64,000 nt of DNA from Candidatus Actinomarina sp. (GCA_045563135.1 JBJKUL010000001.1:100731-164730); one strand, 5' to 3'. Counted from the stretch's first letter, positions 4,995 through 11,131 are shown. Program-made: numbers and translations. The notes: generated by a model from the sequence alone, not told the origin.

Positions 4995-6136
4995 ATAAAA
5001 AGATAAGTAAGTTTTCTCCAGAACCATTCAAGTGGACCATATCTCCACTTTTCTAAGATAGGTTTCGACCAGTATATTTGTAACCCCCAAATAATTAACA
5101 CATACAGAATTAATTGAGACCTTGAAAATGTTCCAATTCCAAACAAACCACCAAGCAAAAATACTCCAACCAATGTTTGGGTTATATAGTTTGTAAATGC
5201 CATCTTGCCACATGCACGTAATCTTGTTGAAATACTTTCTCTAAGTTTTATATTCATGATTGTCAGCAATCCAACATAGCCAAGCACCATTGGAATTACT
5301 GAGAAAGAAAGCCAGAACCAACTTGTTATTGCTGTTGCAGCACTGTATTCAGTTGAGACACGCAAATAAATACTATAAATTGAAAAAGGTAAACCTATAC
5401 AAAATCCATAAAACATCAATTTTTTATAAAAGTTTAAGCCTCTTGTTCCTTGAATAACGTTAAGTCTATACAGTAAAATTCCAACAACCATTAAAGTTAT
5501 TGCTCTCAAGAAGCCGTCTAAAACAAACATAAGTCCAATTATATTTCCAAACTCAGGTTCCTCAGGAAACCAAAACTTTCCTAAATTTAAAGAACCACCC
5601 TCACTTGCAGCAACTATCCAGGCTGAATCTAAAATTAAATTTCCAGAATTATCATATAAAGAACCAATATAATTTATTAGCAAAAGATCTAACAAAACAA
5701 GAAAAGTGATAAAAAATATTGTTATTTTATTATTTTGAATTTGAGGAAATAAAACTATACAAAAAGCGCACAAAGCATATGATACGAGAACATCTCCTTC
5801 CCAAATTGATACATGAGCAATGCCAAATAATAGTAATAAACAGTTTCTCCAAAAAGATAGTAATTTAGGTCTTTTAACTTTTTGTTTAGCATTATCAAGA
5901 AAAATCATGAGCCCAACTCCAAAAAGCATTGAAAATAAGCCCATCATTTTGAATTCAAAAAATACCGAAGAGATAACGACAACAATCCAATCTAGTAAGT
6001 TTTCAACACCATAAGTGGGGTGATTAAATATAGCCGTAACAGGTAAACCAAATGATATTACATTTATTACAAGTATCCCAAGAACGGCAAAGCCCCTAAT
6101 AAAGTCGAGGTTAGTAATTCTTTGAGAAGAATTCAT
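4991..6136 (-). CDS. DUF418 (YeiB-like) multi-pass membrane protein
   Basis: 381 aa and polytopic. The C-terminal GPLEWFWRKLTY matches the DUF418 GPxEWxWR signature. Confidence 0.65.
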   Translation of the reverse strand: MNSSQRITNLDFIRGFAVLGILVINVISFGLPVTAIFNHPTYGVENLLDWIVVVISSVFFEFKMMGLFSMLFGVGLMIFLDNAKQKVKRPKLLSFWRNCLLLLFGIAHVSIWEGDVLVSYALCAFCIVLFPQIQNNKITIFFITFLVLLDLLLINYIGSLYDNSGNLILDSAWIVAASEGGSLNLGKFWFPEEPEFGNIIGLMFVLDGFLRAITLMVVGILLYRLNVIQGTRGLNFYKKLMFYGFCIGLPFSIYSIYLRVSTEYSAATAITSWFWLSFSVIPMVLGYVGLLTIMNIKLRESISTRLRACGKMAFTNYITQTLVGVFLLGGLFGIGTFSRSQLILYVLIIWGLQIYWSKPILEKWRYGPLEWFWRKLTYLFI

Positions 6137-6144
6137 TTAAGTTA

Positions 6145-6534
6145 TTATATGTTTTTTCTTATCGACTTGTCTGACTTTTTAACAATTTCGTTCTTGTAGC
6201 TTTGGTGAATATCTTTTTCATTTTTAGTATGTTGTATTTTTTCCTGGCTAATTTCTTGTTGTAGAGATAAAACGGTTTTTTGCAATTCCTCAATTTTATC
6301 TCTCATTTCATAGATTATTTTTATTCCATCTAAATTTATTCCTCTTTGCGATAAGTCCTGTATTTGTATTAGTTTATCAATATCATTTTGAGAGTATCTT
6401 CTTGTGCCCCCTCCAGTTCTGTAGGGCTTGATTAAACCTTTTTCCTCGTATGTACGTATTGTTTGTTGATGAATACCTGAAAGAGTAGAAGCAACTGAAA
6501 TAAAGTATATTGCAGTAGAGCTTTCTTTACTCAT
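6145..6534 (-). CDS. hspR: MerR-family heat-shock repressor HspR
   Basis: 129 aa with an N-terminal MerR-type HTH (IYFISVASTLSGIHQQTIRTYEEKGLI...GGTRRYS). It is the last gene of the dnaK-grpE-dnaJ operon, as in Actinobacteria. Confidence 0.8.
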   Translation of the reverse strand: MSKESSTAIYFISVASTLSGIHQQTIRTYEEKGLIKPYRTGGGTRRYSQNDIDKLIQIQDLSQRGINLDGIKIIYEMRDKIEELQKTVLSLQQEISQEKIQHTKNEKDIHQSYKNEIVKKSDKSIRKNI

Positions 6535-7603
6535 TTAAATAATCCCTTGGATTATCACCTGATTCAAACTGATCACGAAATTTTTCAAGATGCTTTTTTG
6601 CAGATCTTGAAAGGTTTTGTGGTGGATTCAAGTATACCTTTACATATAAGTCTCCAGATCTTCTGCCTTGGGGAGAAATACCTTCCCCCTTAACCTTAAA
6701 AGTTTTACCACTAGGAGTTCCAGAAGGTATTTTAAGTGAGATTGTTTTTTCCAATGTCGGAATTTTAATTGTCGATCCCAGTGCAGCTTCAGTAAACAGA
6801 AGAGGAACTTCTAATATTAAATCACTTCCATTTCTCTTAAAAAATTTATGTGGTTCTACAGTAATTTGCACAAGGAGGTCTCCATCTGGAGCACCACTGT
6901 CCCCAGGTCCACCATATCCTCTAAGTCGAATAACTGTTCCATTATCAACACCTGCTGGAATTTTTACTTTTACCGTTTCATTCTTTATTACAATTCCCTG
7001 TGCTTTACAGGTCTTACATTGTTTATCAATTACGCTACCTTGACCTCTACAAGCTTGACAAGGCTGAGCAAATGAGAAAAAACCTTGGTTAGAGGCTGTC
7101 TGACCAGTTCCTCCACAAATATTACAAGTATGATAGGCAGTACCATTTTCTGAGCCATTTCCCCTACAGTCTGTACAGGCTACTTCTTTTCTTAATGGCA
7201 CATTTGTTTCTAATCCTGATGCTGATTCAACAAAAGATATGGTTAAATTTGTTTGGTAGCTCTGACCTTTTCTTCTCCCGGCTCCGCCGAAACCAAAAAT
7301 ATCTCCCAAGTTTCCAAAAATATCTCCAAGGTCATCAACATTGAAACCACCCTGTCCGCTAAAAGCAGATGGCCCCATTGCTCTAACTTGGTCATATTCT
7401 TGTCTTTTTTTCTGATCGGTAAGGATTGCACTTGCTTCAGAGATGTCTTTAAATCTTTTTTCAGCTTCTGGATCACCAGGATTTAAATCAGGATGATTTT
7501 CTCGTGCTAACTTTTTATAATTTTTCTTAATTTCATCAACAGATGCATTTTCAGAAACACCCAAGACTTTATAGAAATCTTTTTCTAGCCAGTCCCTATT
7601 CAC
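6527..7603 (-). CDS. dnaJ: Chaperone DnaJ
   Basis: J-domain with HPD motif (HPDLNPGD), a G/F-rich linker and four CxxCxGxG zinc-finger repeats. Confidence 0.95.
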   Translation of the reverse strand: MNRDWLEKDFYKVLGVSENASVDEIKKNYKKLARENHPDLNPGDPEAEKRFKDISEASAILTDQKKRQEYDQVRAMGPSAFSGQGGFNVDDLGDIFGNLGDIFGFGGAGRRKGQSYQTNLTISFVESASGLETNVPLRKEVACTDCRGNGSENGTAYHTCNICGGTGQTASNQGFFSFAQPCQACRGQGSVIDKQCKTCKAQGIVIKNETVKVKIPAGVDNGTVIRLRGYGGPGDSGAPDGDLLVQITVEPHKFFKRNGSDLILEVPLLFTEAALGSTIKIPTLEKTISLKIPSGTPSGKTFKVKGEGISPQGRRSGDLYVKVYLNPPQNLSRSAKKHLEKFRDQFESGDNPRDYLNE

Positions 7604-8141
7604 TATGGACTTTCACCATTGCCGGCCTTAAAAGGCGACTATCAATTTGATATCCTTTTCTTAGAACTTCGCCAACAATTTCCTTCTCTCCATCACCGCT
7701 TTTTTCTACAGCTTCATGATAAGAAGGATCAAAGGGCGCACCTTTTCCTGGCACCTCTTTTACATTAAAAGTATCTAAAAATGCCTGTGCCATTTTATAA
7801 AGCGCAGAAATTTCACCTGGAGTTTCTTCTTGAGCCATCGCTATTTCAAAGTTATCAATCAAGGGAAGTAAGGAAGATATAATCATTGAAAGAGAAGTTA
7901 CTGCACTCATGCTCTTTTCTTTTTCAGCTCGTTTCTTATAGTTATCGAAATCAGCTGCAAGTCTTAAGTAATCATCTTTCATTTTTTCATACTGCTCTAG
8001 TGGAACAGTATGAACTGTAATATCCTCTGAAGTTTCCTCTGAAGTTTCCTCTGAAGTTTCCTCTGAAGTTTCCTCTGAAGTTTCCTCTGAAGTTTCCTCT
8101 GAAGTTTCTAAATTTTCAGAATCATTAACATCCTTACTCAT
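7596..8141 (-). CDS. grpE: Nucleotide exchange factor GrpE with an N-terminal (ETSE)x7 acidic repeat
   Basis: GrpE core at the C-terminus (DNFEIAMAQ...GEVLRKGYQ). It sits between dnaK and dnaJ. The N-terminus is encoded by a perfect 12-nt tandem repeat. Confidence 0.9.
8020..8108 (-). repeat. Perfect 12-nt tandem repeat (about 7 copies) encoding (ETSE)n at the GrpE N-terminus
   Basis: The plus strand reads ctgaagtttcct repeated. Translation gives [12 protein letters not shown].... Confidence 0.9.
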
Positions 8142-9951
8142 CTTCTTCTACAACTTCACCTTCAACTACGTCTCCATCTTCCTGATTATCTGAAGAGTTG
8201 TTTTCTGCATCTTGTTGGGCTTCAGCATATAACTTTTCAGCAAATGACTGGCTAGCTTTAGTCAGCTCATCTATTGCATTCTTTATATCTTCTAAAGACG
8301 CTTCTTCATTTTCTAAAACTTTAGAGAGTGAATCCTTTCCTTCAGTAATAGCAGTAGCTTCTTCATCGGTAGCTTTTTCTTTGTTCTCTTCTAGCATTTT
8401 TTCGGTTGAAGTAACCATCCCCTCTGCCAAGTTTCGAGTCTCAATAAGTTCTTTTTTCTGAGCATCCTCATTAGCATGAGTTTCTGCATCTTTAATCATT
8501 CTTTCTATCTCATCATCCTCAAGAGCACTTCCTCCTGTGATGGTGATATTCTGCTCTTTCCCAGTGCCTAGATCTTTTGCATTAACATTAACAATACCGT
8601 TAGCATCTATATCGAAGGTAACTTCTATTTGAGGAGTGCCTTGTTTTGCAGAAGGAATTTCTGTAAGTTTAAATTTACCCAGAGATTTATTCCCAGATGC
8701 CATTTCCCTCTCACCTTGCAAGACATGGATTTCTACTTCTGTTTGTCCATCTTCTGCAGTTGTGAAAGTTTCAGACCTTTTCGTTGGTATAGTTGTATTT
8801 CTTTCAATCATCTTTGCAACTATTCCACCTTTGGTTTCAACACCTAAAGTTAAAGGAGTTACATCAAGTAACAATACATCTTTTACATCTCCCTTTAATA
8901 CCCCAGCTTGAATAGCTGCACCTGAAGCAACTACCTCATCCGGGTTAACACCTTTATGAGGGTCTTTACCAGTCATACTTTTAACCAAAGCTTGAATAGA
9001 TGGAATTCGAGTAGAACCCCCAACTAAAATTATGTGTTCAATATCAGAATATGATAATCCAGCATCCTCAATTGCTTTATTTACTGGAGCTTTAGTTCTT
9101 TCAACTAAGTCAGAAGTTATTTTCTCAAATTCGCTTCTAGATAGTTTTTCTAGTAAATGTTGTGGGCCTGAGTCATTGGCAGTTATGAAAGGGAGATTAA
9201 TTTCTGTTTCACTTGTTGACGAAAGTTCAATTTTAGCTTTTTCTGCTCCCTCTTTAATTCTCTGCATAGCCATTTTGTCTGTAGAGATATCAATTCCTGT
9301 TGAGGATTTAAATTTCTCAACTAACCAATCCATGACCTTTTGGTCCCAGTCATCTCCTCCTAGTTTCGAATCACCTGCAGTAGATTTCACTTCGAATACA
9401 CCTTCTGATATTTCTAATACAGACACATCAAAGGTTCCTCCACCTAAGTCATAAACTAGTATTTTTTGGTCTTCGCTATTTTCTAATCCGTAAGCTAGTG
9501 AGGCAGCTGTTGGTTCGTTAATTATTCTTAAAACATTTAGGCCAGCAATTTTACCTGCTTCCTTAGTTGCTTGTCTTTCAGCATCATTAAAATATGCTGG
9601 TACAGTAATAACGGCTTCTGTGACATCTTCTCCTAAGTATGCCTCTGCATCTGTTTTCAATTTTTGAAGAATTCTTGCTGAGATTTCTTGAGGAGTATAC
9701 TCCTTACCTTCAAAAGTTTCTTTCCATGAAGTACCAATTTCTCGTTTTATAGATCTAATTGTGTTGTCAGGGTTGGTTATAGCTTGTCTTTTTGCAAGTT
9801 CACCTACTAAAACTTCGCTCCCTTTGAAAGCTACAATGGAAGGTGTTGTTCTATTCCCTTCTGCATTAGCAACTACTGCAGGCTCTCCACCTTCTAGTAC
9901 TGCAACCACGCTATTTGTAGTTCCAAGATCAATTCCAACTGCTTTTCCCAT
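8134..9951 (-). CDS. dnaK: Chaperone DnaK (Hsp70)
   Basis: 605 aa with [16 protein letters not shown] and the full Hsp70 ATPase and substrate-binding domains. Confidence 0.97.
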
Positions 9952-9983
9952 GTTTGTTTTCCTTTCTTAAAATTTATTAGTTA

Positions 9984-10187
9984 TTAAATATTTGGTTCTT
10001 GGTCCCTTGATAAATGTCCTCTTACCCTCGGATAGGAGACAGGAGAATGCAAGAAACAAAATTTTTTCTTATTGTAAATACTTATTTGTGTTTCACATGC
10101 TGCAAATTCGCAAACACGACCAGATGTGTATTTTTTAGATCGCCTTACTCCAGGTTTTACTGAAGAAGCTGTTAATGTTCCACTCAT
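9984..10187 (-). CDS. Hypothetical small basic Cys-containing protein (67 aa) immediately upstream of dnaK
   Basis: ORF with a GGAAGG Shine-Dalgarno about 8 nt upstream of its ATG. It ends 33 nt before the dnaK ATG on the same strand. It contains CEFAAC...CFLH. No recognisable family. Confidence 0.3.
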   Translation of the reverse strand: MSGTLTASSVKPGVRRSKKYTSGRVCEFAACETQISIYNKKKFCFLHSPVSYPRVRGHLSRDQEPNI

Positions 10188-10224
10188 AATATATCCTTCC
10201 TTATCTATGTATTATTATATACAT

Positions 10225-10248
10225 AATCTAAGTAAATATACTTAGATT
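10225..10248. promoter_or_regulatory. Perfect 9-bp inverted repeat (AATCTAAGT-N6-ACTTAGATT), a candidate HspR/HAIR-like operator overlapping the dnaK-operon promoter
   Basis: Read directly from the sequence. On the minus strand a TATAAT hexamer follows at plus coordinates 10214..10219. The IR lies about 40 nt upstream of the small ORF start, in the only long (400 nt) intergenic gap in the window. Confidence 0.45.
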
Positions 10249-10351
10249 TATATAAAATATAATATACTTTTAATTTTATGCAAACTTTTTTATTATATTT
10301 CCAAAAAATCATAGAGATATACATTTCTTTTAATAGTGATATTATTAAATA

Positions 10352-11131
10352 ATGGAAAATCTTGATGTTCATATTGTTGGCATAGGTAATTTAGGTTCAT
10401 CGTTAGTTTCTGGATTAAATAATGCTAATAAAGATTTATCCTTGTATTTATACGATCAAAATCCTAAATTATCTTCACTGCATGACTTACCTGTTAAGAA
10501 TGAAATCGATTCTATAAACACAGGAGTCTTAATTTTGTGTATAAAACCAAAAGACATACAAGATTTTATTAAAGCAAACATTAACAAGATCTCTGAAGAT
10601 GTATTGATCTGCACAGTTTTAGCTGGTGTAGAAATTAAATATCTTGAACAATATTTTGCCAATAGAATTATTAGGTTGATGCCTAATTTATCAATAAAAA
10701 ATAACTCTGGTTTCATTCCTTATACAAAAAACTACAATGAAGACTATCTCTCTTTTTTATCAATTCTTAATGAACTAGGAGAAACATCTGAATACGATGA
10801 AAGTTTATTTCATGTAATTACATCTATATACGGGAGTGGACCAGCGTGGTATTTTGAGCTTTCAGCAAAAATAGTTGATGCAGCCACATCCTCTGGTTTA
10901 GACAATAGTGAAGCTAATAAAATTGTACGAGAATTAGTGAAGTCATTACCCTCTTTACTTTCAAATGATGAATTTACTAAAACTGTTGATAAAATTAAAT
11001 CTCCTAATGGTACAACAGAAGCGGGTCTCGATTCGCTAGAAAACGATTCTTTTGATAAGATTATTCTCAATGCAATTAACTCCGCTACAAATAGATCTAA
11101 AACAATTTCTCAAGAAATAGCTAATGATTAA
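10352..11131 (+). CDS. proC: Pyrroline-5-carboxylate reductase-like NAD(P)-binding oxidoreductase
   Basis: N-terminal Rossmann motif (VGIGNLG). The C-terminal SPNGTTEAGL matches the P5CR dimerisation-domain SPGGTTxAGL motif. Confidence 0.6.
   Translation: MENLDVHIVGIGNLGSSLVSGLNNANKDLSLYLYDQNPKLSSLHDLPVKNEIDSINTGVLILCIKPKDIQDFIKANINKISEDVLICTVLAGVEIKYLEQYFANRIIRLMPNLSIKNNSGFIPYTKNYNEDYLSFLSILNELGETSEYDESLFHVITSIYGSGPAWYFELSAKIVDAATSSGLDNSEANKIVRELVKSLPSLLSNDEFTKTVDKIKSPNGTTEAGLDSLENDSFDKIILNAINSATNRSKTISQEIAND

Follow-up and report, generated by a model that had tools for sequence, protein, structure and literature searches.

The window analysed in this study is a 64-kb stretch of a Candidatus Actinomarina genome with a GC content of about 34% (0.33-0.38 along the window). 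Its minus strand carries a small ORF, dnaK, grpE, dnaJ and hspR in this order, the small ORF being the first cistron, and proC (10352-11131, plus strand) diverges from this operon on the other side of a 164-nt intergenic region (Table 1). Together with the 204-nt small gene (67 amino acids) and a 32-nt spacer before dnaK, this intergenic region makes up the 400 nt at 9952-10351, which a sequence-only reading had singled out as an atypically long upstream region. That impression was an artefact of the uncounted ORF: the true intergenic distance is 164 nt, and other intergenic gaps in the window reach 201-347 nt. The distance from the stop codon of the small ORF to the dnaK ATG, earlier given as 33 nt, is 32 nt on recounting (9952..9983). 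The intergenic region holds an inverted repeat (IR) and has a GC content of 15%. At its proC-proximal end (window 10188-10351) the loci share a further conserved block, CATTATTTAATAATATCA, which adjoins the start codon of proC and is probably a proC leader or promoter lying in the intergenic region common with the dnaK-operon promoter. The 61 related genomic loci all come from single-cell and metagenome-assembled genomes of Candidatus Actinomarina/Actinomarinales (OCS155), and the comparisons below refer to 57 Actinomarina loci having readable upstream sequence and to four loci from sister lineages.

Table 1. Genes and control elements of the dnaK operon in the window, with the basis of each assignment; conservation is the mean column conservation over 57 Actinomarina loci.
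Feature	Position	Strand	Basis or conservation
hspR, MerR-family heat-shock repressor, 129 aa, last gene	6145..6534	minus	NF047375, Pfam MerR_1
dnaJ, with Cys-rich zinc-finger domain	6527..7603	minus	NCBIfam NF008035, 368.5 bits (cut-off 338)
grpE	7596..8141	minus	NCBIfam GrpE models, E=8.7e-33, below equivalog cut-offs; operon position
dnaK	8134..9951	minus	NCBIfam NF001413, 933 bits
Spacer, 32 nt, carrying only the dnaK Shine-Dalgarno sequence GAAAGGA	9952..9983	minus	read across loci
Small-ORF gene, 67-aa basic protein of CCCH zinc-knuckle type, first cistron	9984..10187	minus	ORF, homologues, constraint
Small-ORF Shine-Dalgarno region AAGGAAGGA	10194..10202	minus	read from sequence; unpaired in the predicted 5'-UTR fold
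Remainder to ATG, Shine-Dalgarno included			~0.66
TAGAT, third half-site-like element, direct repeat of the right arm	10203..10207	minus	fixed 23-nt offset; 0.93, AGAT in 55-57/57 loci
18 nt after the right arm			0.70
Inverted repeat AATCTAAGT-N6-ACTTAGATT, putative HspR operator	10225..10248	.	exact; arms 0.99, spacer 0.76
IR right arm ACTTAGAT			0.99
IR spacer			0.76
IR left arm ATCTAAGT			0.99
7 nt between -10 and IR			0.67
Predicted -10 hexamer TATATT	10256..10261	minus	consensus scan; 0.99
17-nt promoter spacer			0.72
Predicted -35 hexamer TTTGCA, operon promoter	10279..10284	minus	consensus scan; 0.89

All 57 Actinomarina loci, like the four from sister lineages, keep the arrangement of proC, the promoter with its IR, and small ORF-dnaK-grpE-dnaJ-hspR. 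The terminal position of hspR could be checked in the window, in the sister loci and in the 51 loci which reach this gene (50 from Actinomarina and L055), and in all of these the order dnaK-grpE-dnaJ-hspR is retained with overlapping or abutting genes. The 129-aa MerR-family product of the last gene is HspR; it scores 108.2 bits against the NF047375 HeatShock_HspR equivalog (cut-off 105) and matches Pfam MerR_1 at 1.2e-16. The gap between the small ORF and dnaK is 15-34 nt in all loci with a GAAAGGA-like sequence always inside it, and no terminator-like site was predicted between the two genes. The short gap, holding only a Shine-Dalgarno sequence of this type, and the lack of a terminator-like site point to co-transcription of the small ORF with dnaK.

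Two peculiarities of the chaperone genes were also observed. The N-terminus of GrpE (window 7596-8141, minus strand) consists of a perfect tandem repeat (TSEE)x6-7, forming a low-complexity acidic extension. In several Actinomarina clades DnaJ has undergone a clean deletion of about 70 residues which removes the whole Cys-rich CxxCxGxG zinc-finger domain, giving proteins of 289 aa against 358 aa (L009-L011, L017, L019, L021, L023, L025-L029, L035, L045 and L060, e.g. L009:7504-8373); the domain is retained in the window, in L012 and in L055. The small gene lies upstream of dnaK in all the genomes, with or without the DnaJ zinc-finger domain.

The small ORF was found as the sequence-only reading had placed it, with an ATG start and the cysteine and histidine residues C26-EFAA-C31 and C44-FL-H47, and its Shine-Dalgarno sequence lies 7 nt upstream of the ATG. 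It is located between the palindrome and dnaK in 57/57 Actinomarina loci, where the protein shows 75-96% identity to the window copy. The corresponding ranges are 77-97% for DnaK, 46-89% for GrpE and 31-75% for ProC, and the small protein is thus conserved about as well as DnaK and far better than ProC or GrpE. The mean pairwise pS and pN values are 0.60 and 0.088 (pN/pS 0.147), the variability at codon positions 1, 2 and 3 is 0.10, 0.04 and 0.30, respectively, and the other two frames contain 4-5 stops each. The small ORF is a genuine gene under strong purifying selection, and its occurrence as the conserved first cistron of every locus, its pN/pS and its homologues establish it as a real operon member, one of the options raised earlier. 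The other options raised, a leader peptide or an sRNA, did not hold. Both are ruled out by the coding signature, the stand-alone homologues and paralogues elsewhere and the lack of an Rfam match; the Rfam scan of 9800-10500 gave only noise, its best score of 19.9 bits lying far below the gathering score of 50 and every family being eukaryotic or irrelevant.

A word-indexed search with the small protein returned 38 matching metagenomic clusters, some of them fragments, with 58-100% identity in the aligned portion, and when 1.84 billion representatives were searched with a profile HMM at E<=1e-3, 700 representative clusters at 50% identity were returned. In an alignment of 46 diverse members, having 33-79% identity to the window protein, R24, C26, C31, Y38, N39, C44 and H47 are invariant and S36, R54, R56 and G57 nearly so. 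The family signature is GRVC-x4-C-xT-xLS-xYN-x4-C-x2-H-x6-PRxRG, with the invariant core R-x-C-x4-C-x6-YN-x4-C-x2-H. Neither Pfam nor NCBIfam gave a match at threshold for the small protein or the 46 family members, and every source name in the family is "hypothetical protein". The AF2 core of the protein is predicted with a pLDDT above 90, and the protein is basic with a net charge of about +8. From this residue pattern we infer that the protein binds zinc through a Cys3His motif of the knuckle type, and our guess is that it may act as a nucleic-acid- or protein-binding stress factor.

The resemblance of this small CCCH protein to known zinc motifs is faint. The SBP-box zinc finger is a domain of about 76 residues with two zinc sites (Cys3His and Cys2HisCys), and the EsV-1-7 cysteine-rich motif has the form C-x4-C-x16-C-x2-H. 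The first zinc site of the SBP box and the EsV-1-7 motif share with the small protein the order and spacing logic C-x4-C ... C-x2-H, a basic context and an L-S/T after the second Cys. However, the loop of the small protein has 12 residues instead of 16, there is only one zinc site, the protein is bacterial, about 65 aa long and stand-alone, and all the matches are sub-threshold: the sole match in a PDB sequence-profile search was the first Cys3His site of the plant SBP domain 8j49 (E=0.1), and the Pfam motifs EsV_1_7_cys (0.01) and CxC6 (0.006) were the sub-threshold ones. Pfam SBP is not among the family matches at E<=0.1 and the CCCH site is single, which places the protein outside the SBP-box family.

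Some Actinomarina genomes carry a second, diverged copy of the small CCCH gene with 55-57% identity (L058:4968-5156, L059:291-476 and L061:4968-5171). These three paralogue loci are devoid of the upstream palindrome. Three conserved ORFs follow the paralogue, the largest with weak HerA/AAA-like matches, and in L058 and L059 tandem repeats with a 9-nt unit, (CTCTGCTCA)n and (TTCTGCTAA)n, lie 5' of the paralogue. A search of viral contigs with the paralogue gave no match.

The control region of the operon was examined by a footprint of mean column conservation in an alignment of 57 non-identical Actinomarina upstream regions. The hexamers of the predicted promoter TTTGCA-17-TATATT reach 0.89 and 0.99, respectively, against flanks of 0.61-0.72, and the IR starts 7 nt after the -10 hexamer. 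As the conserved -10 ends 7 nt before the IR, the transcription start would fall at or beside the first base of the IR, which would thus lie at about +1, a position typical of repressor sites. The earlier reading had placed the IR just upstream of a TATAAT hexamer at 10214..10219. The hexamer is present, but its conservation (0.65) falls short of that of the TTTGCA-17-TATATT hexamers, and it was rejected as a -10 element since it sits in the poorly conserved 18-nt stretch. The geometry is accordingly reversed, the conserved promoter lying upstream of the IR.

The IR itself was described correctly: it is perfect and exact, and it extends to 10-bp arms (10239-10248 and 10225-10234) with a 4-nt spacer. 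No further copy is present in the 64-kb window at <=2 mismatches, nor do the 10-kb loci hold a second one. When this AT-rich region is Markov-shuffled, a perfect IR of at least 9 bp arises in 14% of the shuffles, so that it is not significant in one sequence; what makes it significant is that it is conserved in 61 loci, in each of which it occurs exactly once, and it is the best-conserved non-coding element at the locus. The distance from the IR to the ATG of the small ORF is 56-60 nt in Actinomarina proper; in the four loci of the sister lineages it is about 75 nt. A metagenome scan with TCTAAGT-N6-ACTTAGA gave, among the matches listed, five Actinomarina dnaK loci out of the 80 loci analysed; the other full-arm matches among those listed (L092, L114 and L128) are intragenic and belong to unrelated organisms. 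Neither clpB nor lon is evident among the genes of the window.

It could be argued that the small ORF is non-functional (a leader peptide or uORF, an sRNA or a chance ORF) and the IR a chance palindrome of an AT-rich region, in keeping with the shortness of the ORF, its lack of a Pfam or NCBIfam match and the shuffling result. This explanation is hardly credible. The pN/pS and third-position variability, the stops in the other frames, the 700 homologous clusters with their invariant CCCH signature, the stand-alone genes elsewhere and the 99% conservation of the IR arms in 57 loci all contradict it, and by family size, pN/pS and footprint it is effectively refuted.

Sister lineages were reached by a genome scan and by an HspR homologue search. 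The latter, started from the most distant relative L055, found Actinomarinales only and yielded the sister-lineage operators. L055, L193 and L196 carry ATCTTAGT-N7-ACTAAGAT in place of the N6 palindrome, and L198 and L199 carry the hybrid ATCTTAGT-N7-ACTTAGAT. Within Actinomarina, uncompensated arm changes were found as ACATAGAT in L008, L021 and L026, as AAGC in L042 and L043 and as AACC in L057. Further downstream of the IR, the spacing of the TAGAT element is constant although the 18 nt between are conserved to 0.70 only, and this element could possibly be a flanking low-affinity contact of HspR, by analogy with the weaker sites described below.

[quoted passage not shown] HspR sites overlap autoregulated promoters and are accompanied by flanking weaker sites (PMC6102357, PMC7464140), and the HspR proteins of C. 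jejuni and S. coelicolor bind weaker sites on the flanks in addition to a strong HAIR (PMC7464140). In agreement with the earlier reading, no canonical HAIR was found in the window at <=2 mismatches, and the 3-mismatch matches were intragenic and at chance level. CIRCE was likewise not found in the window, which excludes control by CIRCE/HrcA. Each half-site of the IR ATCTAAGT-N6-ACTTAGAT agrees with HAIR at 4/7 positions, and the spacer is shorter by 1 nt; the IR has in common with HAIR the AGT...ACT core and the T at the third position, and it is HAIR-like on sequence comparison and not a canonical HAIR. The sister-lineage site has the canonical HAIR spacing N7 and reads CTT-AGT against CTTGAGT. 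A literature search for Actinomarina plus dnaK found no relevant paper.

The repressor also differs between the two groups. The HspR proteins of the sister lineages are 57-64% identical to that of the window (6145-6534), and the N6 and N7 clades differ in the helix-turn-helix and wing by T28I and G41K. I28 and K41 occur in exactly those lineages with a 7-nt spacer and TTAGT arms (aligned for L055, L193 and L198), which is suggestive of co-evolution of repressor and operator. The IR lies at the promoter of an operon that contains hspR, the placement found for HAIR-type sites. Because hspR is in the operon, the promoter palindrome is conserved, its cores are HAIR-like and an N7 intermediate exists, we consider it quite probable that the IR is a divergent HAIR-type operator of HspR. 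The proposal of a lineage-specific HspR site thus stands as regards the conserved promoter element, its AGT...ACT core, the hspR gene in the operon and the N7 sister lineages, and only the promoter placement that went with it has to be given up.

With the inferred transcription start, the mRNA would begin with the IR, and hence the palindrome could act mainly as RNA, in the form of a 5'-terminal stem-loop stabilising the transcript or sensing temperature. In the predicted fold of the 66-nt leader (-13.9 kcal/mol, z = -3.06) the IR forms a hairpin of 9 bp, 93.8% of the cells are paired in an alignment of 32 sequences, and in the sister lineages a single position has changed on both arms, from A·T to T·A. 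A site bound by a dimeric protein would, however, be expected to show such a symmetric change in the two arms just as well, and the sequence is conserved beyond what pairing demands, with four core pairs invariant while spacer and flanks stay at 0.65-0.76. The uncompensated changes listed above and the hybrid arms of L198 and L199 also speak against pairing as the main constraint, as does the lack of an Rfam match. The Shine-Dalgarno sequence is unpaired in the predicted fold, which leaves no thermometer logic, and the RNA thermometer was dropped for this reason. A primary role as RNA is therefore unlikely, and a stabilising 5' hairpin is possible as a secondary role, compatible with the operator function.

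A regulator other than HspR may also be envisaged at the palindrome, e.g. the small CCCH protein as autoregulator of the operon. Its gene always adjoins the IR in Actinomarinales, the protein is basic, and its motif bears a faint likeness to the DNA-binding SBP domain at the first zinc site of the latter (PDB 8j49). Against this, the family members of other Acidimicrobiia and the Actinomarina paralogues have no palindrome nearby, the SBP likeness is sub-threshold with one zinc site only, and the hspR gene of the same operon with the AGT-N6/7-ACT core offers a more economical account. A regulator other than HspR, the CCCH protein included, is thus very unlikely, and HspR is retained as the candidate repressor.

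Taken as a whole, the locus is probably the control region and first cistron of an HspR-regulated heat-shock operon of five genes. In this model, the housekeeping-type promoter TTTGCA-17-TATATT would fire into the palindrome AATCTAAGT-N6-ACTTAGATT, located at about +1 to +24, where a dimer of the operon-encoded HspR would bind and prevent either initiation or the escape of the polymerase from the promoter. As in the Streptomyces and Mycobacterium model, titration of the DnaK co-repressor by heat or unfolded proteins would make HspR unstable, and all five genes would then be de-repressed together. The TAGAT element, 23 nt downstream, may serve as a flanking contact of low affinity.

Outside Actinomarinales, the small CCCH gene was followed in nine distinct loci from MAGs of other Acidimicrobiia and Actinomycetota, in none of which it is adjacent to dnaK. 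It occurs there in stand-alone positions, among them after a Peptidase_M3 gene and then followed by csoR-copZ-copA or flanked by zur-znuABC, and in two loci (L063 and L200) it directly follows genes for an ECF sigma factor and a zf-HC2 anti-sigma factor. Eight of the nine loci have the motif GGAAC-N17/18-CGT(T/C) at a distance of 63-123 nt before the ATG (L062, at ~5937-5962, L063, L065, L067, L069, L071, L200 and L202), against a background of about 1 per 10 kb, estimated from the first six loci with the promoter matches themselves counted. The 3' end of the anti-sigma gene itself contains the motif in L063 and L200. It was also observed that a Bpa (proteasome activator) gene adjoins in L200, and that in L062, L067, L069 and L071, from non-marine Acidimicrobiia, the small gene lies by csoR-copZ-copA or zur-znuABC, always after Peptidase_M3; this metal-locus neighbourhood could be inherited synteny or a hint at a link to metals.

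As two independent regulatory arrangements, through HspR and through an ECF sigma factor, agree by their sequence context in linking the small protein to stress, it looks like a stress-regulon product, synthesised when the cell meets heat, envelope stress or thiol stress. Its control appears to have passed from the ECF sigma factor to HspR in Actinomarinales, through insertion of the gene at the head of the dnaK operon. A tentative further reading, which we hold to be possible but rather doubtful, is that the small CCCH protein, of a family widespread in Acidimicrobiia under sigmaE/sigmaH promoters, is a dedicated and unrecognised actinobacterial component of the heat or proteotoxic stress response, hard-wired into the dnaK operon under a re-tuned HspR operator. 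Its role could then be that of a zinc-dependent partner or modulator of DnaK, DnaJ or HspR, or of a stress-specific nucleic-acid-binding factor, and the re-tuning could consist of the change of the operator from N7 to N6 with matching changes in the DNA-binding region of HspR in the streamlined Actinomarinales.

An HspR-autoregulated dnaK operon is textbook biology; the re-tuned operator and the extra first cistron for an unannotated CCCH small protein are variant features, and the small-protein family is the more interesting part of the locus. Few marine Actinobacteria are as abundant or as streamlined as the uncultured Candidatus Actinomarina, and its regulation is therefore, to our knowledge, known from sequence alone. 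For this organism the locus gives a concrete candidate operator of the heat-shock repressor. Further, the variant series N7, hybrid and N6 could show the co-evolution of a MerR-type repressor and its site in an AT-rich genome, and the fact that a 1-Mb genome keeps the small gene beside DnaK suggests an important role in proteostasis or stress signalling.

In C. glutamicum, the sigmaH/sigmaE consensus GGAAC-N17-18-cGTT drives dnaK, dnaJ2, clgR and sigB (PMC10012870). The homologues of the small gene in other Acidimicrobiia carry exactly that motif, whereas Actinomarinales have a sigma70-type promoter with a palindrome instead and the motif is absent from the whole window. The Actinomarina operon also resembles the HAIR operon of Streptomyces and Mycobacterium (Bucca 1995; Grandvalet 1999, via PMC6102357 and PMC7464140). 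Both have dnaK-grpE-dnaJ-hspR with hspR last and a palindrome at their own promoter, with an AGT-N-ACT core and T-rich outer positions; a candidate for the flanking weaker site is present in Actinomarina, and the N7 spacing is kept in the sister lineage. The Actinomarina operon differs from that description in its half-site, ATCTAAGT (or ATCTTAGT) instead of CTTGAGT with 4/7 positions in agreement, in the 6-nt spacer of Actinomarina proper against 7 nt, in having one strong palindrome instead of three, and in its extra small first cistron.
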